From positions 64,001 to 128,000 of IMG/VR virus record IMGVR_UViG_3300010429_001883: a DNA stretch of 64,000 bases, one strand, 5' to 3'. Within the stretch, counting starts at the first letter, position 1. Each line of letters opens with the position of its first letter. Positions 8,003 through 56,845 of the stretch are shown piece by piece. Origin of the DNA: a virus (lineage: Duplodnaviria > Caudoviricetes). The notes beneath the pieces are model-generated. The model saw nothing but the letters and a program-made list of their open reading frames with translations. It searched no databases and was not told the origin of the DNA. The translations under genes and the position numbers were made by a program.

Positions 8003-8003
8003 G

Positions 8004-8032: not shown

Positions 8033-8066
8033 AAATTCACTGATAGTCCATCAGGAGGTTTAAAAA

Positions 8067-8546
8067 ATGGATAAAAATGTTATTAATTTTCCGGGTCAGG
8101 GCGGCATTTCCGCGAAACCAGATGTTTCTGTTATGCTTGATGGTTTGATGTTTAGGTTTGATCAGCTTGCTGCTGCGCTAGAGACAATTAGTAGAAACGT
8201 TAATGAGCTTGCGCTAGATCAAAGAATTATGTACCAGACTCTTGTTGATAATGGAATTATTACAGACGATCAACTAAAGGATGTTGCCGAACTTGAACTA
8301 GAAATGATGAATAAGGTAAACGAGCTTCTGAAAGAAGCAGATACCCCAAAAGATATTCTAACTAAGGCAAACGAGGTTGGCGTTCCGCTCACGCGTCTTC
8401 CACTACACAAAATCATTTTGCATAACAAAGATCTAACCTATAACGAGAAGTTAGATATTTGTAAGGAATTTAGTTTGGAAAGCGTAGAGAAAGTACTTAT
8501 TGATCACAAAGAATATTTTTTAGCTAATACGGAAGTAAGCATCTAA
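8067..8546 (+). CDS. Hypothetical helical protein
   Basis: 159-aa ORF with strong SD. Confidence 0.65.
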   Translation: MDKNVINFPGQGGISAKPDVSVMLDGLMFRFDQLAAALETISRNVNELALDQRIMYQTLVDNGIITDDQLKDVAELELEMMNKVNELLKEADTPKDILTKANEVGVPLTRLPLHKIILHNKDLTYNEKLDICKEFSLESVEKVLIDHKEYFLANTEVSI

Positions 8547-8552
8547 TTAACA

Positions 8553-28052: not shown

Positions 28053-28069
28053 TGGAGGGGTGTATAATT

Positions 28070-34629: not shown

Positions 34630-34674
34630 GGGTACTGAAGGGGTTAACACCCTAATTTCTTAGGAGGTTTGAAT

Positions 34675-38971: not shown

Positions 38972-41900
38972 TGGCAAAATCCTCGGTTAATGACATTTTT
39001 GTAGATATATTCTTAGACTTGGAAGCAAGTTTTGATCCTACGTCTGAACAATCCTATCAAAATTTAAAACAATTAAATAAAAGAATTCTTAATTCGAGGG
39101 CTACTAAACGAAGCCACCGCGGCATTGTTTCTTCCCAACACAGAGCAGCGCATGTTATTGATTTAGCGTATTCAACATTTAATTCTAACAAGAAGATAAG
39201 TAAGCCGTTAACAAGTTTTATTAAAGAAAGACAGCTTGCTGCCGATCCTAAAAAATTTGTAGGCGATTTCTGGAAAACCACAGAAGAACCAAGAAAACTT
39301 TTGGAAGAGTTGCGGTCATTTGCATCTGGTAAAACAACAGCAACAAAATTTATACAACCCATAGATGCATTAACTGAGTTTTTAGAGCATGTTGATGAGC
39401 AAGCCAAGTTAGCAGCCAAGGTTGGCAAGAAAGTAAGAATCAGTGGGTGGTCATTACAGTATGATCTATCTGTACTAATAGGCAATATTGAGGGAATACT
39501 TTCTTCTGGAAAGAGAAAAGATCCGGCAATTGCTGCTAAACTGCATAAACTATCTTCTGTATATAATCAATTTGTTGATCATATTCAACGAAAAACAATT
39601 ACTACCCACAGCCTAGAAACTGGGTTTTTGAAATACCGCGCCGCCCTGGTTGCTAAGGCATATGAAAAGTATGGTCAATCATTTATTTCCAACACTAAAC
39701 TTAATGAAAGCGCCGTCAAGCATATATCGAATGTTATAAGGAAAGGGGATGCTGCTGCTTTTGATGAATTAATAAGTGGTCGAACGGCTAAATTTGGTGG
39801 ATATAGGGTAGAAGATGTTTTAAGGTTTTTAGATATTTATGGTGGAAAAGAAAAACACCGCGCAGCAATGGATGTTTTACAAGAAACAGACATTGCTTTA
39901 AGGTTTAGAGATTTTAATCCATTTGTAGACGATCCTTTTGAATATGCTAAAAAGGTTGGTGGTAAGTCTGTTACTGCTATAACTGATCAGCAGGTTTTTT
40001 ATAAACGAGCCATAAAAGAAATTATAGTGCCAGATAGGATGGGACGAGCGGTGGCTGGGGAAGCGGCGGCTGCGGTTGGGTCAGCCTCTTCACAAATAGT
40101 TAAAGGCCAAAGTTCAATTATATCAAGACTTGCTCTAGGTAAAATTTCTTCCAACAAAGCAATAAAGATAGCTGGCATTGGTGCTCTTGCTGTTGTTGGT
40201 TTAGGTGTTGTGCAGAGACTTTGGGATAGTGCTGGCGACGATGATTATTCTAATAAGCATGAAGCTCTAATAGGAAGTTCACATAAAAAGTTTGGTATTT
40301 TTGGTTCTGGTTACCGCGGAGGTAGGAGTGACTATCTAGATCGAAAGATAGAAGAGGCACGCTCTCGTGGATCGATGTTTGTTGGTGCTAGCTATGTTGG
40401 ATTGCCAACAAGAGAGATTAGACAGAAATTAGTTTCTAATATAGTTGCAAATAGCCCATATGGTGGGGCTGGTGGTTTTGGCGGAAGAAAGAAAAATACA
40501 ACATATTCAGAAACGGCCGCTGGTTTTGGTACTTTTGCTCACCAAATAGCTCAACGTGAAATGATGGATACCGGCAGTTACACCGGTAAAACTTTGACGT
40601 GGCGACAAAATTTTGCAGATGCGATAATAGGTCGGGATAGAGGAAAGGGAATTACTCCCGAATATAAGGCTGTTAGCCAAGAAACCGGCATGTATGGCAG
40701 TATAGACGTACTGCAAAATGAAGTTATTATTGAACATAAGTTTGTTACAGCTGGAATTTTTGAGACAATTGTTAGAACTGGAAAACCATTCCCGTCCCAT
40801 GTGCTCCAGATAAATGCATATATGGGTATGCTTGGTAAACGAAAAGCACAACTAATATACACTAACAGAGAAAATCTTCAACAGAGAATAGTTTTTGATG
40901 TTGATTTTGGTGAAAAAGCATATAAGCAAACTGCTAGAAAAGTAAGAAAAGCCTCTAGGCAGGCAATGCGTGATGCATTAGAAATGGGAGTTGATGTTTC
41001 TAGTTTGCCTGTTAATGAGGACATTACTGGACAAGAAACACAAATACCTTCAATGGAAGAACTGAAAGAAAGGTATCCTGTTGAACTCTTCCATGCGTTA
41101 ACAGTTAGACGCGGTATTCCAACTAATCTTGAAAAATTAAGAGAAGATCGGGACTTAGAACAACAACGTGTTCGTGCTAGGAAAGGTAATATAATTGAGG
41201 GCATGAGACACGGGTGGTTTGGCAGTTCTAGAAAAGATAGAACAGACTTCGGTTCTGGTTTTAGACCAGAAGATGAATATGGTACTCCTGATAACGTATG
41301 GACATCCAGGGCGGTAGCTGTAGCTGCTGTTGGTGGTTTTGCCTATGGGATGGCAAAACACCCGGTTTGGCTTTATAATAAAATTAAGAAACTTGAAGAT
41401 AGAAGTCCTTTACAAATACTTAAAACTTTTCGTTTATCTGAAAGACTTCAGCCTCGTGTTATCAGTGCTCTTGATAGCAAAGGTAAACAAGTAATCCCAG
41501 CATCTGCTTTATTAATACGTGGCGGTTCTGCGATGCGCGGCCGATCTTATGCGTACGCAGATACCTCTCTAACAAAACTAGGGATGTTGGTGCAAAATTT
41601 ACTTGGCGAATTACCAATTGATGAGAAAGGTAATTTAGTTTTTACAAAGGCGGAAGGAAATTTTTATAAAATAGCTGTAGGGGGGCAAGAGAAATTTGTC
41701 ACCTTTGCGTCAGCAAATACTAGGCTAGCCTCTGCGGCGTTTAGATATAATAAGCGAACAGGAGAGAAAGCTCTTTCTGATTTTGAAGTAGCAGCTACCA
41801 AAAGAATGTCAAATATGCCAGAATGGTTTAAAGCTTTTGCTGGCATGCATAACGCTAAGAAAACTAAGACAGAAGAGTTAATTTATAAAGCTGGATTACA

Positions 41901-44900
41901 AATCCAAAAATTAAAATTATCTCAGATAGAACAAAAATTAACGGGTGTTGCTGATGATGCCGTTGCACCAATATATGCTACAACTAAAAGTACGCCAATT
42001 TTAAGAACAGCAGATATATTTTTACAAAAATCTAGGCGCGCAGCTCTTGGAGGACTTGAAAGATTTAATAGATTGATTGCTGAGTTTGGAGTGGCGTTGC
42101 CGGCTGGTTCTTTTAATAGGGTTTTAACGGTTCCATGGAACGACGTAGTAGCTCGTACCCCTGTGGGTAAAAAACTTGGGATGCAGGTTGGTAGGCGCGG
42201 TTTTATAAATCAATTATTAGCTAAAAGGTATTTCCCCATAGCAGCAATTGCTGCGACTGCCGGGCTTTTGGATTATGTTACTGGACATACAGTATCAGAT
42301 ATGCCTGTAGAAACATATGCTAATACACAAATAGGCATGTCTACTGTTGCTCGTATGACTGGACTGAATAAATATAAAGAACTTATAAATACAATTTCTC
42401 CTGTTCCAGATTATGGGATTGCTCTAGCAACACTATCTACAGCAGCGATAGGTTCTCAAATATATGCTAATAGGCTTGCAGCTTCTAATAATATTGCTCC
42501 TGCTTTGTCGCGCCTAGGAGTTACTCAACAATTTTCTACATATGAAAAATTTTCCACCCGTGCTGGACAGGCTCTTGCCAGTGAATCCTATACGCCTGCT
42601 TATCAAACACTGAAGAAAAAGTTGTTAACAAAAAGCCTAAAGGGTGCGGCTTTACTTGCAGCTCCTTTTATTGCCAGTGCTCTTATACCAGAAGAATCTC
42701 CTCAGGAATTAAGAGATATTTATAGTGGCCGACAAGAAATTGAAGTCATGAAAGGGCGATGGTGGGAAACATCTTCTACTCCATATGAAGGCGATAAGAC
42801 TAAAGAATTTCGTCAGCATTTCGTTGCTAGGTTCTTAAATAGGCAATGGATAAAAGATGAATATGGCTCTGAAGGTGAATATTGGAAAAGAAATTTGGGC
42901 ACCCCAATTGGGTGGTTTAATTTACTAACCGATCCATATGGCAAAGAAGTAGAAGCTGCGAAAAGAGGACGTAACTTTCCTTTAACAGAAGAACTATTTT
43001 TAGATGTACCTTTTTCTGATATAACCGGCTTAAGATTTATTGGGCATGCGTTAAAGCCACCAAAATTTATGCATGCTCGAAGTGTTGAAGATTTTGCTAG
43101 GATGTATGAATCAGAGAACCCAGACTTAGAGCCATCCTATGAGCTTGGAGGACTGAAGCCACTGGTTCCTCAAATGCCGTGGAGCTTAAGGAATATGGCT
43201 GCCAGAACTTTTTCTCAATATACAACAGTAGCAGGGTTACCTGGTTTTATAGGAACAACTACGTCCAAAAAATTGTTAGGCGAAGAAAATGTTTTTATTG
43301 ATAAGTATACCCCAACGCTACAGGCAGCCAATGAGATAGGTAATCAAGAACGTTGGTTTTATGGATTAGAATTGGGCGGCGCTGCCTTTTTGTCTGAGCC
43401 TGTTCGTAGGTACATTCAACGAACACCGCGACAATTTGGTGCTCCCTATAACCCAATACCAAATGATTTGCCCGACTGGTTATCTGGAAAAAATGAGTTA
43501 AAAGATTTAGCAACGGGCGATGCTATAGCAAAAGTTGGATTCAACGCTAGATATTTGCCTCCTAGGGGGGAAGGCGAGGAGTACAACGAACTACAAAAGG
43601 CAGAAGCCTTAGCACATGTGCAGCCCTATAGTAGAAGATTAACTAGGATGTTTTCTGCATTAGATGAAGTCGCTCTTGAGCCTATGGCTAGATACCGAGT
43701 TGAGGAACTGAAGCAACAAGTAAAAGCAATAAAAGAAAGAGAAAAATTTTCTGAAAACACGTTTGCAACGCCGTTGGCTGGATATAGTGGGACTGTTGAG
43801 CAAGTTGAGGGCGAATATTTAAAACTAAAAGAATACCCTTTTAAGGAATTTAAAGTAGGGGGATTTGCTTTAAATTATTATCAGACGGCAAAGAATTTTA
43901 TTAGAACTGAAAATATTTCTATACAAAGGGCCGCCATGCGTGCCGCTGAAGTTCAAGAAAAAGCTAGAGAGCATATTGAGAAACAGCTTACACCGGGAAC
44001 TAGAATTGGCTTTGCTGCAGCCGCCGGTGCGCCAGAAAATTTACGTCAAGTTGATATAGCTGTATATACATCTAATGGCCTTTTAAATAGAGAAGTAAAA
44101 GATAAGTATAATTTACCAATAGAGCAAAATAAAGCCATAAGCCAACTTATGTATTCTGCCCCCACTAGGGCAATGGGAACAGTGGCTGAATCTATATTTC
44201 ATGACCCGGCTCTTCCAACAATGGCAAAATTTGCTGGTAAATATACAGCACTAGAAAAATATAAAAAAGAAAGGGTCTATGGAAAGAAAATAAAACTTTG
44301 GGATAACCCAATAGAAAGTTTTATTATGCAACCTGCTTATGGTGCCTCACGTCGATTTGGGTCTGTTGTACCCTTTAATCCTTTTTCTGGATTTGATGAT
44401 GAATATAATAGCATAGAGGGTTTGAAGGGGAATGTTCACCAGCAATTTGGAGTATTCGGTAGCGGATTTATAAATAAACTTGGCAATATAATGGAAACAA
44501 CCTTATCAAAGATATTGTTTTCTGGTAAGGGGATGTCTCCGCTTGTAAGTAGTGAAAAATATTTATTAATTGATGCCGATAAAACATTATTTGGAGGTTT
44601 TCTTGACACGGCATTTAACGCTGTTAACAGAGTAAGCCCTAGCATAGCCAGAGATTTATATGCTTCTAGCACAGCTCGATTTATTTCTTCTAGAATTCCT
44701 GTAACAAAACAAGGAAAAAATGTTTTATCTATGGCTGAAAGAGCCAAAAGTTTTGGTTTTAAACCAATACTTTTTACCGACAGGCCGATAGAACACGCCA
44801 GCTCTACAATAGGGGCACTGAAGCGCTCCGTAGGGGATAAGCGGATTGAAAATTTATTCGAAGGAAGGTATTATTTTGGTGCTGGCAAAAAGCAGTCTTC

Positions 44901-45987
44901 TGTTTTACCAGAATCTTTTTTAATAGATGACAGAATTACAGAGTATGGTAGTTTAGTTAAAGGAGGGCTACACCCAGGAAGTGAAGGTATTGCAACAGCA
45001 TTCATTAGACAAACTACTCCCTTTGGTTCTGGTTTTGCTTCATCAGATCGATATGTGCCTGTTCCTGGATACACTGAAAACATCAGAAAGTATAATGAAT
45101 ATTTTGATAAATTAGAATACATAAAATGGATAAAACTTGCAAAACAGGCAGAGGAAAAAGGACACGATAGGCTAATATCTTACTATATGGCGAAAGCTAG
45201 GGGCACGATGATTGGTATAAACCCCCTAATAGCAGAACCAGAACAAGTTATGCAGGTTTTACCAAAATCTGAGCGTCCTTATTTTGCTGCATTCGCTAAT
45301 GAGCCCAATCCCGAGAAGCGACAGGAAATTATGGAAATGCTTCCTGCATCTCAAAGAAGACTAATGGCTGGGACTTGGTTTAGGCAAATGAATCATGCGT
45401 CTATGTTGGAGGAAGAAATTCCACAGTATCGGGAGTATGTTCGTAATGAAGGATATATGACAGATGCTGAAAAACAAGTTATTCCTGGGCTTGCTAAGGT
45501 ATATGGTGGAGCAGTTGAGCCTGCTGCTCTTGATCGTATGGCAGAAATTTATCAGTTTTTAGATGAAAATAATCTTCCACTTCCGAGTGAAAATTGGAAA
45601 GGGTGGCAAGCACAAATTGATATGCAAGATCTGAAACTTATGTATTTAAAAAGCATAGGTGAAGATATCCATGAATATGATCTGTGGGAAGACCGTGAAA
45701 GAATGCTTGCTAGAAAACCATACTTGAAAAACACGCTGGGTGCTTTACGAAACAACTTTAATCCGTCTGGTACCATTAGTGTCATGGATGGGATATTAAA
45801 AGACAATGGAGTATTAGCTAATAGGTATTCTTCTACACCTACAACTGAGACTAGTTTTACTCTTAACTTTGGTGTTGATCCTGATACTATGTTATATGAT
45901 ACTGATTTTAATAGAGCAATAGATGATTCAATGAGAAAGACACGGCCAGGCTTTGATAATCTAGACCTTTATCTTGGGAGAATGTAG
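38971..45987 (+). CDS. 2338-aa modular virion/ejection-type protein with DEDDh exonuclease, PD-(D/E)XK nuclease and HAD phosphatase modules
   Basis: FLDLE/GWSLQYD/HRAAMD; GTFAH..E..GSIDV..IIEHK..QINAY; LIDADKT/FTDR/GKK/LIDDR; several Gly/Ala hydrophobic helices; tape-measure locus position. Confidence 0.7.
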   Translation: MAKSSVNDIFVDIFLDLEASFDPTSEQSYQNLKQLNKRILNSRATKRSHRGIVSSQHRAAHVIDLAYSTFNSNKKISKPLTSFIKERQLAADPKKFVGDFWKTTEEPRKLLEELRSFASGKTTATKFIQPIDALTEFLEHVDEQAKLAAKVGKKVRISGWSLQYDLSVLIGNIEGILSSGKRKDPAIAAKLHKLSSVYNQFVDHIQRKTITTHSLETGFLKYRAALVAKAYEKYGQSFISNTKLNESAVKHISNVIRKGDAAAFDELISGRTAKFGGYRVEDVLRFLDIYGGKEKHRAAMDVLQETDIALRFRDFNPFVDDPFEYAKKVGGKSVTAITDQQVFYKRAIKEIIVPDRMGRAVAGEAAAAVGSASSQIVKGQSSIISRLALGKISSNKAIKIAGIGALAVVGLGVVQRLWDSAGDDDYSNKHEALIGSSHKKFGIFGSGYRGGRSDYLDRKIEEARSRGSMFVGASYVGLPTREIRQKLVSNIVANSPYGGAGGFGGRKKNTTYSETAAGFGTFAHQIAQREMMDTGSYTGKTLTWRQNFADAIIGRDRGKGITPEYKAVSQETGMYGSIDVLQNEVIIEHKFVTAGIFETIVRTGKPFPSHVLQINAYMGMLGKRKAQLIYTNRENLQQRIVFDVDFGEKAYKQTARKVRKASRQAMRDALEMGVDVSSLPVNEDITGQETQIPSMEELKERYPVELFHALTVRRGIPTNLEKLREDRDLEQQRVRARKGNIIEGMRHGWFGSSRKDRTDFGSGFRPEDEYGTPDNVWTSRAVAVAAVGGFAYGMAKHPVWLYNKIKKLEDRSPLQILKTFRLSERLQPRVISALDSKGKQVIPASALLIRGGSAMRGRSYAYADTSLTKLGMLVQNLLGELPIDEKGNLVFTKAEGNFYKIAVGGQEKFVTFASANTRLASAAFRYNKRTGEKALSDFEVAATKRMSNMPEWFKAFAGMHNAKKTKTEELIYKAGLQIQKLKLSQIEQKLTGVADDAVAPIYATTKSTPILRTADIFLQKSRRAALGGLERFNRLIAEFGVALPAGSFNRVLTVPWNDVVARTPVGKKLGMQVGRRGFINQLLAKRYFPIAAIAATAGLLDYVTGHTVSDMPVETYANTQIGMSTVARMTGLNKYKELINTISPVPDYGIALATLSTAAIGSQIYANRLAASNNIAPALSRLGVTQQFSTYEKFSTRAGQALASESYTPAYQTLKKKLLTKSLKGAALLAAPFIASALIPEESPQELRDIYSGRQEIEVMKGRWWETSSTPYEGDKTKEFRQHFVARFLNRQWIKDEYGSEGEYWKRNLGTPIGWFNLLTDPYGKEVEAAKRGRNFPLTEELFLDVPFSDITGLRFIGHALKPPKFMHARSVEDFARMYESENPDLEPSYELGGLKPLVPQMPWSLRNMAARTFSQYTTVAGLPGFIGTTTSKKLLGEENVFIDKYTPTLQAANEIGNQERWFYGLELGGAAFLSEPVRRYIQRTPRQFGAPYNPIPNDLPDWLSGKNELKDLATGDAIAKVGFNARYLPPRGEGEEYNELQKAEALAHVQPYSRRLTRMFSALDEVALEPMARYRVEELKQQVKAIKEREKFSENTFATPLAGYSGTVEQVEGEYLKLKEYPFKEFKVGGFALNYYQTAKNFIRTENISIQRAAMRAAEVQEKAREHIEKQLTPGTRIGFAAAAGAPENLRQVDIAVYTSNGLLNREVKDKYNLPIEQNKAISQLMYSAPTRAMGTVAESIFHDPALPTMAKFAGKYTALEKYKKERVYGKKIKLWDNPIESFIMQPAYGASRRFGSVVPFNPFSGFDDEYNSIEGLKGNVHQQFGVFGSGFINKLGNIMETTLSKILFSGKGMSPLVSSEKYLLIDADKTLFGGFLDTAFNAVNRVSPSIARDLYASSTARFISSRIPVTKQGKNVLSMAERAKSFGFKPILFTDRPIEHASSTIGALKRSVGDKRIENLFEGRYYFGAGKKQSSVLPESFLIDDRITEYGSLVKGGLHPGSEGIATAFIRQTTPFGSGFASSDRYVPVPGYTENIRKYNEYFDKLEYIKWIKLAKQAEEKGHDRLISYYMAKARGTMIGINPLIAEPEQVMQVLPKSERPYFAAFANEPNPEKRQEIMEMLPASQRRLMAGTWFRQMNHASMLEEEIPQYREYVRNEGYMTDAEKQVIPGLAKVYGGAVEPAALDRMAEIYQFLDENNLPLPSENWKGWQAQIDMQDLKLMYLKSIGEDIHEYDLWEDRERMLARKPYLKNTLGALRNNFNPSGTISVMDGILKDNGVLANRYSSTPTTETSFTLNFGVDPDTMLYDTDFNRAIDDSMRKTRPGFDNLDLYLGRM

Positions 45988-48900
45988 TGCCAGATTCAAA
46001 TGAAAAATTAAGAGTTAATGACAGCCGCTCTATTAGTAGCTTTTTAGGTATTGCCGGCGTTGGCGCCGCAGTATTTGCTGGTGGTTGGCATTTATTAAAT
46101 AATGCTGGATTGCGGGAAGCTATGTCTGGTGGTGTTAAGGGTGTTACAAATGTCGATATGAGGGCTGCTGCTGCTAAGGGGATTTTAAGACAAAGACAGG
46201 AAGATTTTATTAGACCTGGGTTTGAGGCGGCATTTGAGGCCAACCAGAAAAAGTTCGCTGAGTTTGGTTCAAAAGAAACTTTGCATAGGGTTAATAAAGC
46301 ACTTGATACTGCGCTTAATCCAAAATCTAGTAGAATAGATTACATCTTGAAAAGAAACAAACAAAAGCTTGATAAGGCTCGGGAAGATTTAGCCAGAGCA
46401 ACAACACCAAGAGATAAAGAAAGATTACTGCAACGTGTAGCTGGGAAAGAAAGAATAGAAAAACACTTTATGTCTAAGGCTAAACAGCTTGTTGTTGACG
46501 CTAACGATTCGCTTAATAAAACATTAAAGCCTTACCTGGCTGGTACAGATCTTGGATCATTAAAGAATACTAAAGAAACATTCTTGGCTGTATATAAATC
46601 CTTAGCTAAAACTAATCCCTCAGAGGCGGCGAAGCTATATAACACCGTTAGTATGATGTCAGAAATGGCTGCCAGCGGAAAAACAATCTCAGCAAATTCA
46701 AGAATTGGTAGTAAATTTAAGAAAAGGGGACTAACGGCTGTTTCTAAATCCAGAAGACTTGGATTTTTAGAAGCCGGCGGATATTTAGAAGGTTTATCTA
46801 AGAAACAAGTAAAAGCATTATCTTCCTCGGCAGGTTTCCGTGTATACAGCAGACAAACTGCTGGTGGAGAGATGGCTTTTGTTTCATTTGGAACTAGTAA
46901 TCGGATATGGTCTTTAGGTGAGGCAGGATCTAAGTCCATCTCTTCTGTCTATGAACACGTTGGATCTGGTGGTGGAATTCTTTCTGGGATGCTGGTTAAG
47001 AAAGCTGGTGGTCAGTTTGAAGAGGTTAAAGGGTCTACTTATGTTCTTTCTAAAATAGCAGAAACTGCTGAAATGGCCGGCAAGGCAATATCAAAAGAAG
47101 ATGAAGAAATTTTATCTGCCTTGTATGCACATAGAACGTCTAATACGGCCGCACTTTGGCAGGCCCATGGAACTAATTCTCCACTGCGGGGTTTTGCGAC
47201 AAATAGGGCACTAGTTGAAGAAATGGTTTTGGATCGTGGTTTTATGCATAATACCGAGGCTGTTTCTGAGTTAAGCTCTAAATTAGCTAATCAAGGGTAT
47301 GTTCCTGCAGCCGGCGGTAGTGCAATAGAAACAGTTTATAAAATGTTTGGTTTTGATGAAAAAGGACAGAAGATAGCTACCGGGCTTGGAGCTGAAACAT
47401 ATAAATTTAATGTATGGGATGAGGCCTCTGGATGGTTGCCCAAAGAAATGAAAATGGCAGACTGGTTAATGCAACATCACGGTAAATTTAAAGATCAGTT
47501 TGAATTGTACAGAGCACACATGAAAATGGATTATTTGGTTAGTTCTGCTGAAGAGGGAGATAAATTTTTTCAACCGCTTTCAAAGACACAGGCTAAATTA
47601 AGAGTGAACGCTGGGGTTCTAAGTAATAAACAGTTTCAAGATTTTAGAGAACTTAGTGCTCTCGCTCAAGAACTTAAAGGCAATGTTAAAAGTTTTAAAG
47701 AAACAGATATTTTAGATGCTTTAACAGGGGGTAAAGTTTCTCAAAAGTTACTTAAAAATTTAGGCATAAGTGAAGGTTCTGTTATAGATAGAACTAAAGC
47801 AGCTGCCATAGCCAAACAATTCGCAAAAATGGGACAAGTGGGAGTAGAGGATTTACATTATATAGCTAACATTGGTGCTGGACAGGCCCTAGGCTCTAAA
47901 GAGTTTATGCAAAGAATTAATTCTATTGAGTTTGCTTCTGTTTTTGATGTTGATGACTTCTCTAGTGATATTGTGGAAAAAATTAACAGAGCGAAACCAG
48001 GAGAAACAATAGAAATTAAAAATCTAAAGCCAGGACAAATATTAGGTAGAAAGGATAATAGAAGTATACGGTTAGCAAAAGATGGCACGAGAAAATATCG
48101 TGCTGAAATTATGAAAACTGAAAAGGGATATAAAGTGATTGCATATGGGCAACATGCTCATAGAGAATATATGAGTAAAACAGCTAGATCATTTACTGGT
48201 GCAGGTGAAAATTTAGATAGACGTCTTGTGGTAATGGGAGACCTTAGAGGGGGCCTAAGCCACGCTAAAGAACTTATGTCTACTATTGGTGGAAAAAAAT
48301 ATCAAGATACTATGGAAGCTGTTACGGCACTTTTGTCCGGTGGGAAAAGTTTAGATTTATTATATGGAGAAGATATATTAAGCAACGCTCCAAGCTATGT
48401 TAAAACCATGGCAGTTAAGTCTATGGAGCAAACCAAGAAAACAGGTAAATATGTTCCTTTAATGATACAAAGTTATTTTAGCTTGTGGGCAGCAGGGGCT
48501 GCGCATATAGGGTCAAAAGCGAAGGGAGATATCTTACATGCTCAAATGATGCGGAACATGGGGCTTGATTTCATGATTCCTAAATATTTTGCTAAGATGA
48601 CTAGTTTAAATAAGGAAGGATTACAGCTGGCATTGAAAATGACAGAGGCATATCAAACAGGTACGGACGCTGTTGGTGATTTAATAAAAACACAAGTATC
48701 AAATGTAAATGAGTTAAGAGAGGTGCTTGGTAAAGGAATAGCTTCAGAAGAATATGCTGGTGGGTTTAAGTATAAATCAAGAAAAGGACTTATTGACGAA
48801 GTTAGAAAAATGTACGGAGATACTGATCCAAAAATCTCTAAATTGTTAGATAGTATTAAGGATCAGGAATATTATTATATGCCTGGAGCCAGATCCGGCC

Positions 48901-50936
48901 TTCAAGAGAAAATTGCTGCTGCGGCTAAAGAGGGCGCTGCGTCACAACGGCCGCTTTATTCTACTAAGCTAGAGCAGAAAATTATGGATGTGGCAAGAGC
49001 AGAAGAATCTTTACAGTTAAGTTTAGAAAAAGGAGACGCGGCGGGAGTTAGGTCGTCTCTTGTTAAATTAAAGAAAGCACAAAGAGAATACGCCACAACT
49101 CCAGGAATTGGTTTAACTGGTAAAAGGTCTATACTTCGTGATTTGGGTCCAACAGAGGGCGGCACGAGGTTTACAATTCATTCAAATATAACTGCCAAGC
49201 AATTCGAAAGCGTAGCCGAAGTTGGTGAAGTTGGTTTAATTGACCTTGGTTTTAATCAGGAGGAGATAGCAAAAATAAAAACTGCTGCCAAGAAGGCTGG
49301 CGGAGTAACGGATGTATCTGGTGTTTTGTATGGTACCAGATGGCCGATAACTTCTGGTGGTTTTTATAAATTGAAATTTAATCAAGATATAATGGATAAA
49401 ACAATTCGTACCACAACCCTTATGGACCAGTTATCTATGATTGATAGAGATAAAGACGCTATGGATGCTGTATTTTTTAGAGGTAAGGGATTGGCTGGTG
49501 CCGAACTAACGCAGGAACAGATTAAGACAATATTTGAAAGACAAAAGCAATTACTTAAAACTGCTGAGCCACTGATGTTTCAGTTTAAGTCTGCGTTTGA
49601 CTACACAAAGAGCGATGTAAAGGGGATGCCATCTTATTTTAATTCAGCTGGATTTGCTGACCTTTTAAAAGACCAAGGAATAACTGATTTTAAAGACGTA
49701 AATAAATGGAAAGAAGTTGGAACAATACAAAAACAATATGATGATATGCTGTCCTCTATTACTGGCGGTAAGGCCGACAAGCAGCTAATGGAAGAATTTA
49801 CACAATTTGAAACAGATTATGGCCACATGTTTTATAAAAATAAAGATAAAGCTATGAGGAGGCTAAGATCTGCCGAAGCATTTTCGCATATGAAACTTTT
49901 TGAACAAACGTTTGTTCGCAAAATAGGTGGCAAGGGGATTATTCCACAAACAACGAATATGACTAGATTAATGGATGTTTTGGCTCAACGTGGCGGAATA
50001 ACTGAAATGGGGGATAAAGCACGAACACAGATTCAACTGTTGGGTGAGGCTCTTTTCCAATTTCCAATTCACTCTCTTAAGCACGCCGACTCGGCGTCGA
50101 TGTTAAACTTTGCTCAGATGACAGATAGAGCTATGCAAGAACTTAAGAAAGGAAATGTTGATAAATATTTTGAAGAATTGGGTTCTTCCTCGTTTTTTAG
50201 AGAAAAATTAATAAAACCCGATTTATTAAAGAGAAAGGATTTGACCAAAGCCAAAGTAGATGCTATAATGAAAGACGAAGAACTATATAGGAAGGCATCT
50301 AAAGATTACTTTAATAAATATTATTCTGAATTGTCAACAGCTTTGAAAACCGCCGCCGGAGCAGGACCAGAGGAATTTAATGAAATTGTTCGTGGCGTCG
50401 AGGGCTTTTATTCTAAGACAGGGAATTTGGGGTATATGAATAAACGCATGGCAGCTATGGCTGCCCATACGCTTGTTCCAGAGGAAATTATATCAAAGGC
50501 AGGTATGGCGAAAAAAGATGTTGCTTTAGATGTAGCTAAAACAACATTAAAGAAGCATCCTGCTGTTGCTATTAGTGTTGGAGGAGGGGTGGCCGCTTTA
50601 GCTCTTATAGGGATGTTACAGTCTCCTAGTGATACTTCTCCATTAATTTCTCCAACTGCTGCTGATAAAGAAGCCATGAGTAAGAAAAGGCCAACATCCC
50701 CAGCAGATGCTTTGGGGATGCCAAGAGAACCAAGTTTTTTAGATAATTTGAAAAGAGCCACCGGCGGTCGATTTGCTTCCGAAGGAACAGTATCTTATGA
50801 TACAAACGGCGAACAGCTTGGCAAACAAATACAGCAAAAATTAGGATCAAATGATGTTAAAGTTAACATTATGAATCCCTATGATAGTAGAACATCTATA
50901 CGGACAAGACGCAGAATAAGCGGAGAACAACAATGA
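45987..50936 (+). CDS. Putative single-chain two-barrel (beta/beta-prime-like) RNA polymerase, likely virion-associated
   Basis: TRWP (49338) to DRDKD (49443-49457) with Arg-to-first-Asp spacing of 35 aa as in beta-prime R425/D460; LTGKRSILRDLG..TRFTI switch-2-like; GVEDLHYI and LKPGQILG beta-like segments. Confidence 0.65.
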   Translation: MPDSNEKLRVNDSRSISSFLGIAGVGAAVFAGGWHLLNNAGLREAMSGGVKGVTNVDMRAAAAKGILRQRQEDFIRPGFEAAFEANQKKFAEFGSKETLHRVNKALDTALNPKSSRIDYILKRNKQKLDKAREDLARATTPRDKERLLQRVAGKERIEKHFMSKAKQLVVDANDSLNKTLKPYLAGTDLGSLKNTKETFLAVYKSLAKTNPSEAAKLYNTVSMMSEMAASGKTISANSRIGSKFKKRGLTAVSKSRRLGFLEAGGYLEGLSKKQVKALSSSAGFRVYSRQTAGGEMAFVSFGTSNRIWSLGEAGSKSISSVYEHVGSGGGILSGMLVKKAGGQFEEVKGSTYVLSKIAETAEMAGKAISKEDEEILSALYAHRTSNTAALWQAHGTNSPLRGFATNRALVEEMVLDRGFMHNTEAVSELSSKLANQGYVPAAGGSAIETVYKMFGFDEKGQKIATGLGAETYKFNVWDEASGWLPKEMKMADWLMQHHGKFKDQFELYRAHMKMDYLVSSAEEGDKFFQPLSKTQAKLRVNAGVLSNKQFQDFRELSALAQELKGNVKSFKETDILDALTGGKVSQKLLKNLGISEGSVIDRTKAAAIAKQFAKMGQVGVEDLHYIANIGAGQALGSKEFMQRINSIEFASVFDVDDFSSDIVEKINRAKPGETIEIKNLKPGQILGRKDNRSIRLAKDGTRKYRAEIMKTEKGYKVIAYGQHAHREYMSKTARSFTGAGENLDRRLVVMGDLRGGLSHAKELMSTIGGKKYQDTMEAVTALLSGGKSLDLLYGEDILSNAPSYVKTMAVKSMEQTKKTGKYVPLMIQSYFSLWAAGAAHIGSKAKGDILHAQMMRNMGLDFMIPKYFAKMTSLNKEGLQLALKMTEAYQTGTDAVGDLIKTQVSNVNELREVLGKGIASEEYAGGFKYKSRKGLIDEVRKMYGDTDPKISKLLDSIKDQEYYYMPGARSGLQEKIAAAAKEGAASQRPLYSTKLEQKIMDVARAEESLQLSLEKGDAAGVRSSLVKLKKAQREYATTPGIGLTGKRSILRDLGPTEGGTRFTIHSNITAKQFESVAEVGEVGLIDLGFNQEEIAKIKTAAKKAGGVTDVSGVLYGTRWPITSGGFYKLKFNQDIMDKTIRTTTLMDQLSMIDRDKDAMDAVFFRGKGLAGAELTQEQIKTIFERQKQLLKTAEPLMFQFKSAFDYTKSDVKGMPSYFNSAGFADLLKDQGITDFKDVNKWKEVGTIQKQYDDMLSSITGGKADKQLMEEFTQFETDYGHMFYKNKDKAMRRLRSAEAFSHMKLFEQTFVRKIGGKGIIPQTTNMTRLMDVLAQRGGITEMGDKARTQIQLLGEALFQFPIHSLKHADSASMLNFAQMTDRAMQELKKGNVDKYFEELGSSSFFREKLIKPDLLKRKDLTKAKVDAIMKDEELYRKASKDYFNKYYSELSTALKTAAGAGPEEFNEIVRGVEGFYSKTGNLGYMNKRMAAMAAHTLVPEEIISKAGMAKKDVALDVAKTTLKKHPAVAISVGGGVAALALIGMLQSPSDTSPLISPTAADKEAMSKKRPTSPADALGMPREPSFLDNLKRATGGRFASEGTVSYDTNGEQLGKQIQQKLGSNDVKVNIMNPYDSRTSIRTRRRISGEQQ

Positions 50937-53900
50937 AGGATAATGACGTATTAGCATTTAAATCTTTAGACCATCCAGCTCAGTCGGAGTTTACAATTGG
51001 TTACATTAAATTAGAAGTACCTCCCTCTGATATACATGTCACTAAAAGTACCAATTCTATGTTTTTGGGGGCTTTAAGAAGTCCTGCTGATACGCCATTT
51101 AAAACCGGATATTCAAATTGGGATATAACAGTTCGTATGCAGTTTTATGGTGAAGAAGAAATTGCTTCCAAGCTTCTTCCAATTGTTGGGATGTGTAAAG
51201 TTGCTCCCATTGTAAATGTAAATAATTTGACAATAAAAGAGCAGCTTTTTGGGCATTTGGCAGGAACTTTAGGTGCTTCTACTGCTGTGGATGATTTAGA
51301 CTTTTTAGGAACTCTTAATTACTATTATTCAAAAGATAACACTATTTCTGTTATTATTGAAGGAATGTCAATAAATGTTATGTCTCAATATGGCGGGCTG
51401 TGTCTAGATGTTAATTTATATTTGAAATATTATAATCACCATGCAGTCAGTCCTTATTTTAGAATTAATGAAGAAAAACTCAAGGGAAGAGTTGACAGAT
51501 GGATACAACAAGCTAAATTAAATTATGATACGCACGTTAATGCTATAAAAAATTTTAAAGTTAATTTAAATTCTGATAATGAATTTATGGTGGTTGGTAG
51601 ATATTTTCATGCTATCTCTACTGGTGGTGTATCCTTTGGAACTCTTATAGAGCTTTTAAAATCAATGGCTGTGCCAGAAAAAGATAGAGCAGATGCAATT
51701 AATGATATATTAGAGAAAGATAAATATAAGAGAGATCTCTATAATAAAAAAATGGAAGAGCTGGAAAAAACGTTACAAGAAGCACAAGCTAAGGAACGTG
51801 CCAGCCAACAAACTAAACCTGATCCCCAAAAAGAGGGAGCAAGCAGTAAAATAAAATTAGGGTGGCCTTTAAAACAACATACAATTGTACATGATTGGGG
51901 AGAATCTGGACATACGATTACCAGATCTAATCCAACAGGAGTCCATGAGGGAGTTGATTTGAGGGCTGCACAAAGAACACCGGTATTCGCAGCTGAATCA
52001 GGAAAGGTTGTAACGGCTTCTGAAGATACTCAGTATAGTGGTGGTTTAGTTGTTATATCTCATGAAGGTGGAATTACAACACACTATGCACACTTAAGTC
52101 AAGTGTGGGTCAGAGTTGGTATGAAGGTGGAAAAGGGACAGCAAATAGGAGAATCTGGGGGTACGCCAGGAACAAAGGGCGCGGGTTCTTCGAGTGGACC
52201 GCACCTACATTTTGCTGTTAAGGAAAAAGGCAAGCCAGTTGACCCAAAATTATATTTAGATTTAAATGATAATTATAAAAACATTCGTCCAATAGCAGCC
52301 GGAGCACAGACGCCTGAAATAAATATTGGTAAAACGCCGTATCAAGAAATAAGAGATTCAGAGCAGCTAAGGGCAGCAGCCGAAGATATAAAAAATAAGT
52401 TAGAAGACGGATGGACAGTTGATATAATGAAAACGGACGAAAACTACATAGTCTTTTTTAAAGAATTTGGTATTCCGTTTTTTAAAGATTTCAATATTTC
52501 TAGTTATATGGATTATGATATACAGGGGTTTAAACTTGTTGATACAAGAGCAAGAATAATTCTTAACAGTATAGGCATATCATTAAAAAATAAATTTGTT
52601 CCTATTCCTATTGCCGGGTACCCAATGCCGTTTTATCAGCATTTGGGCGGATGTAATGTTTCTGTTGGTGTGGGGGGCTTGGCACTAGTTGATGAGAAGA
52701 CTGGAACATGTACTCCGCTATCTAATTTACAGGCCTTATATAACTTGAAAGAAGTTCAATTCTTAGCTTTGCGTGGTAAAATTGATTACACGCCTGGTTC
52801 TAATTATGATATACAAGGAGTAAGAATACTTAATAAACCGCTGGGTCTTCTTGGTCTTGTTAATTTTGTTATCTCTGATTTGGCTGTTGGTACAGTACCT
52901 GACACGCCGAACGCTATGAATGTTAATTTAAACATGTTTGAGAACTATGTCTATGATAATACAATTTATAATGATTCAGGTAATATTAGTATTTTTCAGG
53001 ACTATATTTTACCAGATTTAATAGTTGATGAACTTAAAAAATTAGGCCCAATAGAGGCAAAGAACCTTGGGCCGGAAACATTTAAGCTATACTTACAAAT
53101 ACAAGTTTGGGACAAGTTTGAAAGAGATAATCCCAACTATATGAAGAATATAAATAACGATGCCAAATTGGTTGAAGCCACTAAGAAAACTATAGAAGGT
53201 TGGGCCAACGTAGAAAAACTAAACAGCCTTTTGCCTGCTGGTGGTTTAGAGGATTATCAGAAATTAATGGGTGGGAGTTTTTTACACGGATCGATTGTCC
53301 AGACGCTTGTGTGGATGACTTCTATGGGCGTTCCAGGTACAGGGACTGTCGCAGCAGGACCAATTCCATCTTTACCGTTGCTTTTTGCTAAGCCAGTTAC
53401 AGAAATAATTGATGTATACTTTATGCCATCTATTAAGCAAGCAAGCTGGATGGAGCATGCACAAACAAGGCGAGAGTATATTCAAGATTTTTACACAAAA
53501 AATTGTGATAAAGATCCATTTTTGATCTGGATAAGGGATAAAATCAATCGTGGCGAGTATACGCACGAACTCAAGAATAGATTTAATTTTGATATGGATG
53601 CATTGACAAGGACGTGTTATCCAGATCTTTTATTACAGAGGGGAGAAGACCCTGGTGCATATATAGATTCTGGGCTAGAACCAGACCCAGAACAGATGAG
53701 TCAATTATGTGCAGAATCGGTTGTCGTTTCTAACGCCGCCATTCAAAATATAAAAGAACATTATTCTGGTTTACTTCGGTATAAAACAGTAGAATTAAGT
53801 TATGCGGAGGGGGCAGAAGACAAGGGTCAGGGTGTTTTAAATAAACCAGAGACAGAGCCTTTGAAGCATTCTAGTTCAGACGGCCCATATGAAACCAATG

Positions 53901-56845
53901 CCTCATCCTATATTAATTTAATGACGGCTGTTGATACAAACGGCGGTACTCATCTAGTTGTTGATCAATTTACATACGATACAAGTTTTCCTACTTTTAA
54001 GATATATTTAATAGAAGACGTAGCTGCTGACGATTCTTCGGAGTTTCTGGGGTTAAAACAAGTAGAGTGGGATAAGTTTTACAGTTACTCCGCTGTTACT
54101 GAAATTGAGGTAGCTAGGTTTAAGCATGATGTAGATGTTGCAGTTATTAAATTCTTAAATACGTTTGGTAATTTAACAACAAAAATTTATGGAGCAGATG
54201 TTTATTTAACGCAAGAATTTAGTAGAGACGTTATTGAAAAAGATTTTGAAAATAGATACAGACTGCAACGAATGGATAATGGAACACTTGTCCAAATGGA
54301 TAGGTTTACAAACGAATTGATGCCTATAACTAAAATGTTTTTACAGGCAGGAACAAAAATACTTATTAAACTAGGATACCATAATTTAGAACATAAATTG
54401 CCAACAGTATTTACAGGGCTGGTTACAGAGGTGCAGCCAGGGGAAATAGTTACTGTTGTATGCCAGGGATTTTTAAGTGAACTTTTGGCTCCATTAGATG
54501 GTAGGTTTCCCTCTAGCTTTGGTGGGAAAATTAGACAGTTGCTTGGTTTGGACGCTACAAGTTCCGGGTTAATGGAAGATGCGTCCACCTATTTAGCGCA
54601 CAATGCGGAGCTTATGACTTATTATGGTCAAAAAATATATGAAGATCCGACATACGCTGCCAGGCTATTTAATGTAGTTAATCATTATAATTCACTTACG
54701 TCACTTTATGATAGATTTATGGGAAAATCGCAGCCAACCGCTTCTGGTAAAATGGGGGGACAGGGCATTGATCCAAGACTTAGAAAAATACATAGAGCTG
54801 TCCACCTAAACAACGCCTGTACGGCAGTTATAGTACAGAAATTGTTGGAACATCCTGCAGCTATACACTTTGGTGGGTGGTACCTAACTAATTCTGGAAT
54901 GGATGGGTCAGCTACAATGTTTGGTGGATTTTTTGATGTGTGGATAGGACAGAGCAATAGATCAATAGAAAACATTGATCCTGTTTTATTAAGTGCGTGG
55001 CAGAAGGACAATAACTTATTAGCGATTTATCCGACTTTTCCTACTTTTTATGTTAATGATAAGAATATGTCCACAGTTTGGGAAACAATAAGAGAACTTG
55101 GATATAGACATCCAACACATATTACGACAGTACGTCCATATGGTACCAATGCTTCTCTTATAATGAAAGAAAGGACCGATACATACAAAACATCTGGTTT
55201 AAGTTTTTATGGAAACACTAGAACTGAAATTGTTCAAACTAATATTTTTGCTAAGTTTTTGAACGAAGAATACAATATAAAAACTTTTACTGATGACATG
55301 TTTAAAATTTATCATGGTGCCACATTTGATAATTTCAATAATTATGTTGCAATAACAGCGGAAACAAAGAAAGCCATACAAGACTATATTTTGTACTATG
55401 GCAAGCCCACTAAGCAACAAATTTATTATGTTTCCGCAGATAAAGTAATGGCAAAAAATGAAATATATTTTGAAGAGTCTTTGCCTGCTGGTACCGTTTT
55501 TGTGAAACCATCGGATATTTGGACGGTGGCTTTACAAATGGGGAAGTTAGAATTTTTTAAGCTTTTTTTGCCTGCCGATATGTATCTTGTTTTGGCTGAT
55601 AAATTTACTAATTTTAAAGCTAAACAAGCAAAAATAGATCCAGTACTTGGGCCACAGCTTTCAGTTGAAAGAGAAGTAGAACCAGTAACAATGCCACACT
55701 ATGTTAGCGATAAAGTTAATATGGTTTTTAATAATATAAGAACTAATGAAAACATATTTAATGCTGTTCTTATAAAGAAAGATGTAGAAGACATAGCATT
55801 AGAAAGTATGATTGCCTTAGATGACAATATTTTAGATTCTCATAAAAAGGTGTTTAATTATACAAGTAAAAACATACAAGCAAATGCTGAAGACATGGAT
55901 GCTAGAAAATTTAATGATTTGCAGGCACTATATGGATTTTCTATTTTAATGGAAAAACTTGCACAAATGTATAAAGGCGAGTTAGCTATGGTAGGTAATC
56001 CAAACATACGTCCATTTGATACCATAGTTTTGGATGATGCTCAATCGCAACTTTATGGGTCTTTCGAAGTAGCCTCTGTGATCCACAGGTTTACACAAGA
56101 TGAAGGTTTCGTAACTTTTGTTGAGCCACACCTCATATCAAATGTTTCCAATTATGCCCTGGCGGCTGCACAGGGTAGAATAGAGGATATGGTAAGAGAG
56201 GGTAATAAACAATCTAGATTTTTACGATCAAGAGAAGAAAGAAATATATATTCCTCTAGTGAGACGGCTAGAGAATTTATGAAAACAAACCCCAACGCTA
56301 GTGGTGATTTTATAACATCAACAGGCAGCAATGCATCTCAGTTGCTGTTAAAATATTTTGCTGCAGGAACTACGGGTGGTTTGTCTGGTCTAATAGCAAG
56401 CACAGAAATGGGTAGAAGTTTTTTTGATGATGAGGGGGCTAAGGGGGCTGAGATAGGTGCTTATATTGGCATGTATCAGGCTGCAGATGCCTATGTACTA
56501 GGAGATTGGATTAGCGCCGCATCGAAAGCAAGAAGTCTGCCTATGTTCATGTTTAGTAGATTTTTTCCTAGCTGGGCATCAACGTTATCTAACTACATGT
56601 ATCATGCCGGGCCATATAGACAGCCTATTGTTATCAAGCCGTTAACATTAAGATCTGTTCCATTTATAGCTGGAATAAAGGGGGCTGTATTTAATAGTTG
56701 GTTCGATAGCGCAACTATGGGGCTTTCAAGAGCAATAAAAGCGTTACCGGAAGAATTTGTGGCGTTAAATAAAGGACTTCGTAGTATGATTAGGGCATAC
56801 AACCATACAATTGGATCTAAATTTAAGTTCTTGAGGTTTAATTAA
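50933..56845 (+). CDS. Baseplate hub/tail-associated lysin with M23 peptidase domain
   Basis: HEGVDLRA, HYAHL, GPHLHF (about 51860-52260); GTKILIKLGY..VFTG..VCQGF and GELAMVGNPNIRPFD..SVIHRF hub-like motifs. Confidence 0.8.
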   Translation: MKDNDVLAFKSLDHPAQSEFTIGYIKLEVPPSDIHVTKSTNSMFLGALRSPADTPFKTGYSNWDITVRMQFYGEEEIASKLLPIVGMCKVAPIVNVNNLTIKEQLFGHLAGTLGASTAVDDLDFLGTLNYYYSKDNTISVIIEGMSINVMSQYGGLCLDVNLYLKYYNHHAVSPYFRINEEKLKGRVDRWIQQAKLNYDTHVNAIKNFKVNLNSDNEFMVVGRYFHAISTGGVSFGTLIELLKSMAVPEKDRADAINDILEKDKYKRDLYNKKMEELEKTLQEAQAKERASQQTKPDPQKEGASSKIKLGWPLKQHTIVHDWGESGHTITRSNPTGVHEGVDLRAAQRTPVFAAESGKVVTASEDTQYSGGLVVISHEGGITTHYAHLSQVWVRVGMKVEKGQQIGESGGTPGTKGAGSSSGPHLHFAVKEKGKPVDPKLYLDLNDNYKNIRPIAAGAQTPEINIGKTPYQEIRDSEQLRAAAEDIKNKLEDGWTVDIMKTDENYIVFFKEFGIPFFKDFNISSYMDYDIQGFKLVDTRARIILNSIGISLKNKFVPIPIAGYPMPFYQHLGGCNVSVGVGGLALVDEKTGTCTPLSNLQALYNLKEVQFLALRGKIDYTPGSNYDIQGVRILNKPLGLLGLVNFVISDLAVGTVPDTPNAMNVNLNMFENYVYDNTIYNDSGNISIFQDYILPDLIVDELKKLGPIEAKNLGPETFKLYLQIQVWDKFERDNPNYMKNINNDAKLVEATKKTIEGWANVEKLNSLLPAGGLEDYQKLMGGSFLHGSIVQTLVWMTSMGVPGTGTVAAGPIPSLPLLFAKPVTEIIDVYFMPSIKQASWMEHAQTRREYIQDFYTKNCDKDPFLIWIRDKINRGEYTHELKNRFNFDMDALTRTCYPDLLLQRGEDPGAYIDSGLEPDPEQMSQLCAESVVVSNAAIQNIKEHYSGLLRYKTVELSYAEGAEDKGQGVLNKPETEPLKHSSSDGPYETNASSYINLMTAVDTNGGTHLVVDQFTYDTSFPTFKIYLIEDVAADDSSEFLGLKQVEWDKFYSYSAVTEIEVARFKHDVDVAVIKFLNTFGNLTTKIYGADVYLTQEFSRDVIEKDFENRYRLQRMDNGTLVQMDRFTNELMPITKMFLQAGTKILIKLGYHNLEHKLPTVFTGLVTEVQPGEIVTVVCQGFLSELLAPLDGRFPSSFGGKIRQLLGLDATSSGLMEDASTYLAHNAELMTYYGQKIYEDPTYAARLFNVVNHYNSLTSLYDRFMGKSQPTASGKMGGQGIDPRLRKIHRAVHLNNACTAVIVQKLLEHPAAIHFGGWYLTNSGMDGSATMFGGFFDVWIGQSNRSIENIDPVLLSAWQKDNNLLAIYPTFPTFYVNDKNMSTVWETIRELGYRHPTHITTVRPYGTNASLIMKERTDTYKTSGLSFYGNTRTEIVQTNIFAKFLNEEYNIKTFTDDMFKIYHGATFDNFNNYVAITAETKKAIQDYILYYGKPTKQQIYYVSADKVMAKNEIYFEESLPAGTVFVKPSDIWTVALQMGKLEFFKLFLPADMYLVLADKFTNFKAKQAKIDPVLGPQLSVEREVEPVTMPHYVSDKVNMVFNNIRTNENIFNAVLIKKDVEDIALESMIALDDNILDSHKKVFNYTSKNIQANAEDMDARKFNDLQALYGFSILMEKLAQMYKGELAMVGNPNIRPFDTIVLDDAQSQLYGSFEVASVIHRFTQDEGFVTFVEPHLISNVSNYALAAAQGRIEDMVREGNKQSRFLRSREERNIYSSSETAREFMKTNPNASGDFITSTGSNASQLLLKYFAAGTTGGLSGLIASTEMGRSFFDDEGAKGAEIGAYIGMYQAADAYVLGDWISAASKARSLPMFMFSRFFPSWASTLSNYMYHAGPYRQPIVIKPLTLRSVPFIAGIKGAVFNSWFDSATMGLSRAIKALPEEFVALNKGLRSMIRAYNHTIGSKFKFLRFN

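Follow-up and report, generated by a model that had tools for sequence, protein, structure and literature searches.

A predicted beta-prime-type RNA polymerase core in a giant tail protein of a 0305phi8-36-like jumbo phage

The arrangement closest to the one discussed here is that of gp96 from Thermus phage P23-45, a virion RNA polymerase (RNAP) that is fused to the tape-measure protein and paired with a separate non-virion RNAP (PMC10770324; PDB 8h2m). Virion RNAPs of the phiKZ type are also packaged and injected (PMC7598289), and gp66 of the crAss-like phage phi14:2 is cited as being ejected from the virion (PMC10770324). We analysed a stretch of 64,000 nucleotides, the window, which covers bases 64001-128000 of a 148-kb IMG/VR virus record (IMGVR_UViG_3300010429_001883, estimated 78% complete). 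The virus is an uncultured 0305phi8-36-like jumbo myovirus of anaerobic digesters and wastewater. An open reading frame (ORF) of 1649 amino acids with a GTG start (P0001; 45987-50936, plus strand) is the middle one of three giant tail genes in the window, and structure predictions make it very probable that its product contains a catalytic core of the beta-prime type. That the protein is an active virion RNAP, injected into the cell, is a reading that we favour with modest confidence. To our knowledge, and in the literature searched, P23-45 is the only phage with a tape-measure-fused virion RNAP (described in 2024); the predicted core suggests that the window holds a second, independent case of a polymerase injected as part of a tape-measure protein.

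The resemblance to gp96 is an analogous arrangement, and the two proteins do not belong to the same family. In both long-tailed phages, the giant protein in the tape-measure position contains a module of the two-barrel RNAP family and hydrophobic segments; it has an associated peptidase, and there are relatives without the module. P23-45 also encodes a separate single-chain non-virion RNAP, for which the genome of the window has a YonO-like candidate. In contrast to P23-45, a siphovirus with the RNAP at the N-terminus of the protein, the window stems from a contractile-tailed jumbo phage, with the module in the middle of the protein. gp96 has a canonical DFDGD loop at a distance of 38 residues from RxP, whereas the window family has DxD(K/N)D at a distance of 35. 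The Thermus phage protein lacks a clamp and both of its barrels have been solved; the window protein keeps a clamp-helix-like hairpin, its second barrel was not found, and the peptidase resides in a separate downstream protein. A search for kinship by hhalign gave a probability of 1%, and the structural match to 8h2m comprises the barrel only and ranks below the multisubunit RNAPs.

With the bacterial and phiKZ/AR9-type beta-prime subunits, the middle protein shares the RxP-35-DxDxD spacing, the GK of switch 2, the clamp helices and the barrel order, and its best structural matches are PDB beta-prime chains together with those of AR9 (7s01_d and 7s00_d) and phiKZ (7ogp_A). Unlike these subunits, it has no PF00623 match and no zinc-binding or other beta-prime domains, and its core lies within a tail protein whose ends bear hydrophobic segments. 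gp66 of phi14:2, YonO of SPbeta and QDE-1 are likewise giant or single-chain proteins that pipelines missed, with a very divergent double-psi beta-barrel of the A type (DPBB-A) and a very divergent DxDxD. However, they have both barrels in one chain, as structurally demonstrated, and they are not among the best fold matches of the middle protein. By spacing and clamp helices, the family looks nearer to the multisubunit clade.

A virion RNAP within a tape-measure protein and divergent two-barrel phage RNAPs are already known. New here are a family unrelated to gp96, its occurrence in a contractile-tailed jumbo phage, a spacing and clamp helices that resemble those of multisubunit RNAPs, the replacement of the DxDGD Gly by Lys or Asn, and the lack of a recognisable second barrel. 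If the favoured reading is correct, an unrelated lineage, which is common in anaerobic digesters and wastewater, has made the same fusion of RNAP and tape measure with a different RNAP core, and tail-delivered transcription would be a recurrent strategy and not a curiosity. It would also raise the question of how a polymerase passes through a contractile tail tube, and would bear on the degree of divergence that two-barrel polymerases tolerate in the DxDGD loop and the second barrel.

Predicted fold and conserved residues

Two template-free AlphaFold2 runs, based on five-sequence alignments, covered residues 880-1400 and 600-1200 of the middle protein. Residues 1060-1165 form a barrel in both models, with block means of the predicted local distance difference test (pLDDT) of 64-92 in the first and 57-90 in the second. 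When the models were compared by Foldseek with 350,542 PDB chains, the best 50 matches were in both cases exclusively RNAP largest subunits (best E-value 9.8e-4 for the first and 3.1e-5 for the second model, probability up to 1.00, about 240 aligned columns). The PDB matches comprised bacterial beta-prime, the N-terminal halves of cyanobacterial and plastid beta-prime, the largest subunits of Pol I, II and III, archaeal A' and the AR9 non-virion RNAP. BFVD contributed jumbo-phage proteins of about 500 residues, baculovirus LEF-9 and the RPB1 proteins of nucleocytoplasmic large DNA viruses, and the best match in the ESM Atlas was a viral cluster with PF00623 in 97% of its members. A structural alignment placed residues 263-490 of Escherichia coli beta-prime onto residues 993-1190, and thus reproduced the order of clamp helices, switch 2 and DPBB that had first been read from the sequence.

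One of the BFVD matches, A0A8S5SD80_1 (first part, 1423 residues; probability 1.00, 271 columns), is annotated as a 'minor tail protein' of an uncultured siphovirus. RNAP cores embedded in tail proteins may be more widespread.

The catalytic motifs had been picked out before any homologue was known. The sequence-only reading had placed R1118 of LYGTRWP at 49338, DRDKD (residues 1153-1157) at 49443-49457 and the start of GVEDLHYI at 47847, all correctly, and the further stretches that it had named, KTIR, YYMPG, LTGKRSILRDLG and LKPGQILG, are all found in the ORF. The distance of 35 residues from the Arg to the first Asp is indeed that between R425 and D460 of E. coli beta-prime (read from NC_000913.3). 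Conservation of RxP and DxDxD in homologues had been set as a check beforehand, and all their residues proved invariant in the five-sequence alignment, as did K1046 and T1122 (with R1118, P1120, D1153, D1155 and D1157). The models place a DPBB at 49164-49481, and all homologues have the three Asp, the two points on which that reading had staked itself.

MAFFT aligns the barrel region with E. coli beta-prime in such a way that GK falls on K334, RxP on R425/P427 and DxDxD on D460-464; the stretch from RxP to DxDxD is ungapped. Eight residues are invariant across all two-barrel RNAPs, five on the beta-prime-type and three on the beta-type barrel (PMC2919709), and all five universal residues of DPBB-A (RxP, DxDxD) are present and invariant in the family. 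Its distant members, with Y-R-D-P-I-T-H ... A-D-F-D-K-D, are nearer to the canonical sequence than the window protein. Apart from a YonO-like candidate, no other ORF of at least 250 amino acids in the 148-kb genome has the RxP...DxDxD pair. Further invariant residues lie downstream (R1327, Q1358, P1360, I1361, K1365 and H1366). By motif only, and where the model has low confidence, helix 1299-1335 can be likened to the K-T-A-N...R-R-L-V of beta-prime and segment 1351-1366 to Q...P...R-x-x-H. On the evidence of the sequences, the motif set is more than chance.

The family is very small, with only five sequence clusters. An exhaustive HMMER search with residues 801-1300 against 1.84 billion representatives returned the query's own cluster and P0004, P0005 and P0006 only (26-29% identity over the matched part, E-values from 2e-18 to 1e-7). 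A word-index search added one relative, P0003, at 53%; word-indexed searches for homologues gave nothing besides this relative or the query, no additional relatives came from pattern scans of IMG/VR and JGI metagenomes, and tblastn against 50,697 phage records gave nothing. Only 4.5% of the columns in the five-sequence alignment are invariant, the four deep branches have 20% mean pairwise identity, and conservation peaks in the RNAP-like core (residues 880-1380) and the C-terminal hydrophobic segment. DNA of the stretch 47784-50186 is nearly intact (0.97-1.00 of sampled words) in metagenomes from anaerobic digesters, biogas fermenters, sludge and wastewater, which stem from at least seven independent studies between 2016 and 2025. 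Since sequence searches of Pfam, PHROGs and PDB give no match to the family, pipelines label it hypothetical or tape measure.

The second barrel and alternative explanations

A number of results weigh against the favoured reading of an injected, active polymerase. Pfam and PHROGs gave no meaningful match to the whole protein or to three pieces of it, and phmmer and hmmsearch of the protein and the core profile A2 against PDB sequences gave chance matches only. Comparisons of the family profiles by hhalign were non-significant, both with E. coli beta-prime, P23-45 gp96 and the genome's two YonO-like ORFs, and with alignments of 62 beta-prime and 60 beta sequences built here. The Gly of DxDGD, which had been seen to be replaced by Lys in the window protein, is Lys or Asn across the family. 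Mean pLDDT of the AlphaFold models is low (56 and 49), the metal loop is predicted with low confidence, the alignments hold only five sequences, and the motif itself may guide AlphaFold. The models of residues 600-930 have a pLDDT below 50-60 and show no second barrel, a beta or Rpb2 chain came up in none of the fold searches, and the Asp and the two basic residues of the beta-type barrel (DPBB-B) are not identifiable. Finally, DxDxD is absent from two proteins that correspond by position to the middle protein, gp146 of 0305phi8-36 and CDS27 of the Moorella phage MTATph1, and the module is therefore dispensable in this lineage. As to the profile comparisons, a lack of significance between two-barrel RNAP families is usual (PMC10770324), and the best local hhalign match of core profiles A2 and A3 to beta-prime, itself non-significant, sets DxDxD on DxDxD.

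The sequence-only reading had also proposed a beta-like barrel in the same chain, and in this respect it was not borne out. PF00623, PF00562 and PF00940 have no match in the six frames of the whole genome, for PF00562 not even at an E-value of 10, and neither a beta nor an alpha or omega RNAP partner was found in the genome. Of the beta-side motifs that had been suggested, PGxxxG holds up, with G683 and G687 invariant; H624 is invariant in one of two alignments, and LDLLYG is not conserved. The beta-side catalytic lysines, already described as not clearly identifiable, had the same outcome here. In residues 600-935, an invariant Asp and a recognisable K-x(4-7)-K are both missing, and the only invariant basic residues are R745 and K928 (R692 in the full-length alignment only). 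K928 is the only invariant Lys within 200 residues upstream of the barrel, and the only candidate for a catalytic Lys. The sheet of residues 652-721 is a candidate, though unproven, remnant of a beta-side domain. Because a beta-type barrel was not found, the designation as a single-chain two-barrel RNAP is unproven and can only be inferred.

The alternative that survives best is a tape-measure or ejection protein with a catalytically dead RNAP-derived module, which in the tail lumen or a trans-envelope channel would bind DNA or RNA or play a structural part. It would account for the failure to find the beta-like barrel and the catalytic lysines, for the replacement of the Gly of DxDGD by Lys or Asn, and for the lack of the module in the corresponding 0305phi8-36 and Moorella phage proteins. 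ESM-Atlas features of residues 560-960, which have tape-measure-like or unnamed neighbours, are a weak lead in the same direction. However, the five catalytic-side residues and K1046 are invariant at about 20% overall identity, and unless their chemistry is under selection this is difficult to account for. Nor does the crAss-like virion RNAP have the Gly of DxDGD. An inactive module is therefore disfavoured, and appears unlikely though plausible. It is rather unlikely, in turn, that the protein is an injected RNAP of multisubunit (beta-prime) origin in the tape-measure protein of contractile-tailed jumbo phages, whose second barrel has diverged beyond recognition or been exchanged for a non-canonical partner domain, which would amount to a new active-site architecture and to a fusion that arose independently at least twice.

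A split virion RNAP, with the middle protein as its beta-prime-like subunit and a separate virion protein, such as a neighbouring giant, as the beta-like partner, seems improbable. The fold matches are to beta-prime/Rpb1 only, best to the N-terminal halves of bacterial and jumbo-phage beta-prime, the spacing is that of bacterial beta-prime, the clamp-helix hairpin is retained, and translational coupling links the giant genes. The block of giant 1 with the highest conservation, which has an intein site in one homologue, reads G-K...K-R-G...D-V-P-F and is loosely similar to GDK...KG...EDMPF of beta. The core of giant 1 was considered as the beta-like partner, in analogy to rpoB before rpoC. This idea was rated low because ME3 gp035 and 0305phi8-36 gp145 do not share the Lys pair and DVPF, although ME3 gp036 keeps RxP...DxDxD. 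Moreover, the core of giant 1 has no PDB, Pfam or Atlas match, and PF00562 occurs nowhere in the genome. A complex prediction with the giant 1 core gave no support, a result that counts neither way.

Wall-degrading domains often occur in tape-measure proteins, and a DPBB of the RlpA, expansin or MltA kind could act on peptidoglycan. Yet the best 50 Foldseek matches (3Di and sequence) are all RNAP largest subunits, the match of about 240 residues continues into flanks specific to beta-prime, the motifs RxP, GK and DxDxD are characteristic of RNAPs, and a wall hydrolase (M23 or GH108) is already present in giant 3. The RNAP-only match lists and the beta-prime-specific flanks therefore disfavour a wall-acting barrel, which is very improbable, as well as chance. 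That the motifs arose by chance within a long helical tail protein of low complexity, and that the fold is a prediction artefact, is scarcely credible: non-significance of every sequence-profile comparison, shallow alignments and an overall pLDDT of 49-56 would fit, but the motif residues chosen in advance all turned out invariant, and two independent models agree with the PDB, BFVD and ESM Atlas searches.

On the favoured reading of an active, injected virion RNAP, the middle protein would be assembled in the tail lumen as, or together with, the tape measure, and would exit via the tube upon contraction, with or ahead of the DNA. Its hydrophobic ends would go into the envelope, as proposed for tape measures. 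The central core would consist, in this order, of the clamp-helix-like hairpin, the switch-2 GK, the DPBB with RxP and DxD(K/N)D, and the bridge-helix-like and trigger-loop-like segments, with a second barrel presumably in residues 600-935. This core would transcribe the DNA that enters first and, with it, the pre-early genes, among them the YonO-like polymerase gene or genes. The YonO-like polymerases would then take over, in a scheme like that of P23-45 gp96/gp64 (PMC10770324) and like the virion/non-virion pairing of the phiKZ type.

Two ORFs outside the window are candidates for such non-virion RNAPs. One, of 1146 amino acids (G000:C1:14298-17738, minus strand; L006:299-3739:-), has RNP at residue 683 and GDFDGD at 730; the other, of 1117 amino acids, lies at G000:C1:29575-32928 (minus strand; L007:276-3629:-). 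Both are without a Pfam, PHROG, PDB or phage-database match, and their assignment as YonO-like remains putative. 0305phi8-36 itself is reported to encode a YonO-like RNAP (PMC7824862, PMC2919709).

The tail trio and its relatives

All long ORFs of the window lie on the plus strand (Table 1). Sheath and tube genes are found upstream and baseplate genes downstream of the giant trio, which is preceded by tail chaperones. The TAG stop codon of giant 1 and the GTG start codon of the middle gene share one nucleotide (TAGTG), the TGA of the middle gene overlaps the ATG of giant 3 (ATGA), and GGAG-like ribosome-binding sites precede these overlapping starts. The three giant genes are translationally coupled. 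The hydrophobic Gly-rich stretches that had been noticed at both ends of the middle protein were confirmed as hydrophobic Gly/Ala-rich segments at residues 15-37 and 1524-1546.

Table 1. Features of the window and of the middle giant protein
Feature	Residues	Position in window	Strand	Basis or remark
Portal		23370-25067
Major capsid protein		28052-29353
Tail sheath		32669-34582
Tube-like protein		34669-35451		followed by small ORFs
Giant 1	2338 aa	38971-45987	+	homologue of 0305phi8-36 gp145 (virion protein) and ME3 gp035; trio member
Middle giant, RNAP-like	1649 aa	45987-50936	+	central gene of three coupled giants
N-terminal hydrophobic Gly/Ala-rich segment	15-37	46029-46097	+	Kyte-Doolittle scan; conserved in P0003
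Five-strand beta region with invariant PGxxxG (G683, G687)	652-721	47940-48149	+	pLDDT 53-62
Invariant G-x-K-Y-x-S	G926, K928, Y929, S931	48762-48779	+	alignment
Helical hairpin	993-1036	48963-49094	+	pLDDT 70-84; aligns structurally with beta-prime clamp helices (E. coli 263-309)
Switch-2-like G-K-(R) ('LTGKR')	K1046 invariant	49113-49136	+	MAFFT onto E. coli beta-prime LLGKR (K334)
Predicted DPBB, beta-prime type (DPBB-A)	1060-1165	49164-49481	+	AlphaFold (both runs), Foldseek PDB, VIA-align, BFVD, Atlas
R-x-P, invariant	R1118, P1120	49338-49346	+	five-sequence alignment
D-x-D-x-D metal-binding loop, DRDKD	D1153, D1155, D1157 invariant	49443-49457	+	alignment
Bridge-helix-like conserved helix (F1299, L1304, Q-T-T-N...R1327-L-M)	1299-1335	49881-49991	+	inferred, motif level
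Trigger-loop-like segment (Q1358, P1360, I1361, K1365, H1366 invariant)	1351-1366	50037-50084	+	inferred, motif level
C-terminal hydrophobic segment	1524-1546	50556-50624	+	Kyte-Doolittle; with the RNAP-like core, the best conserved part
Invariant basic C-terminal tail	S1637, R1639, T1640, R1642, R1643, G1646	50895-50924	+	alignment
Giant 3	1970 aa	50933-56845	+	M23 peptidase domain; homologue of 0305phi8-36 gp147 and ME3 gp037 (hub / wall hydrolase)

The nearest relatives of the sheath protein are those of Moorella phage MTATph1, Acinetobacter phage ME3 and Bacillus phage 0305phi8-36, and all three phages have a giant trio after the tail chaperones. The first and third giants are BLAST homologues of ME3 gp035/gp037, 0305phi8-36 gp145/gp147 and Moorella CDS26/CDS32. 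The trio is kept at all loci with enough sequence; a short contig (L004) shows the last two genes only. By position, the middle gene of the window corresponds to 0305phi8-36 gp146, which is recorded as a 'hypothetical tape measure protein' and was identified as a virion protein by mass spectrometry. This match to the gp145-147 trio backs the tail-module, virion context that had been proposed for the middle protein.

gp146 and ME3 gp036 occupy the same place in a trio whose flanking giants are BLAST homologues, but have no significant sequence similarity to the middle protein of the window. BLAST and hidden Markov model (HMM) comparisons of the middle proteins with each other revealed no similarity, and the family HMM gave nothing significant against the trio proteins of ME3, 0305phi8-36 and the Moorella phage. 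Judged by these comparisons, the middle proteins evolve fast. As gp146 and Moorella CDS27 do without DxDxD, the RNAP-like module is dispensable in the lineage, and would thus be an accessory of the tape-measure-position protein in part of it. Relatives of P23-45 likewise occur with and without the RNAP fusion (PMC10770324).

ME3 gp036 (L091:13173-17984) has R-E-P at residue 1174 and D-H-D-Q-D at 1217, a spacing of 43, in the same relative position, and MAFFT lays these motifs onto RxP and DxDxD of the family. In BFVD, the model for the 802-residue second part of the ME3 protein A0A172Q021, which from the lengths we infer to be gp036, matches the predicted fold with an E-value of 2.7e-3. One weak fold match together with the motifs suggests that ME3 gp036 may keep a related module. 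As ME3 is a cultured Acinetobacter baumannii phage, its protein is a possible tractable system for a tail-borne RNAP.

The middle protein has no tape-measure match in Pfam or PHROGs; the tape-measure position after the chaperones and the hydrophobic segments are both present. Giant 3 could be the tail-length ruler instead. Its wall-hydrolase domain is swapped among relatives, being an M23 peptidase in the window (50933-56845) and a GH108 lysozyme at two other loci (L003:15754-21519 and L005:15195-21152). Mobile elements lie inside or beside the trio in two relatives: an IS605 OrfB/TnpB (Cas12f1-like) follows giant 3 at L003:21539-22567, and in Moorella phage MTATph1 a transposase separates the middle giant gene from the third (L093:15539-17026).

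The core of giant 1, residues 1240-1830 (42688-44460), is very strongly conserved and common to ME3 gp035 and 0305phi8-36 gp145; 30 of the 40 residues in 1297-1336 are invariant among four homologues. The L003 homologue (gene 3387-10004) carries an insertion of 403-404 amino acids at 6045-7253, which begins with C-L-V-S-G-S and ends with A-Y-H-N, with a Ser as the next residue. The insertion resembles a class-1 intein, has a faint Pfam match to LAGLIDADG, and falls exactly within the best conserved block of giant 1. It comes after R-W-W-E, which in giant 1 of the window corresponds to residues about 1262-1266 (bases about 42754-42768). Residues 507-662 of giant 1 (40489-40956) match phrog_1706, 'CRISPR/Cas system associated', with an E-value of 1.7e-12, which suggests a nuclease-like domain. 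The L003 homologue has a DNA_pol_A_exo1 domain instead, and the enzymatic cargo of giant 1 therefore varies among the relatives.

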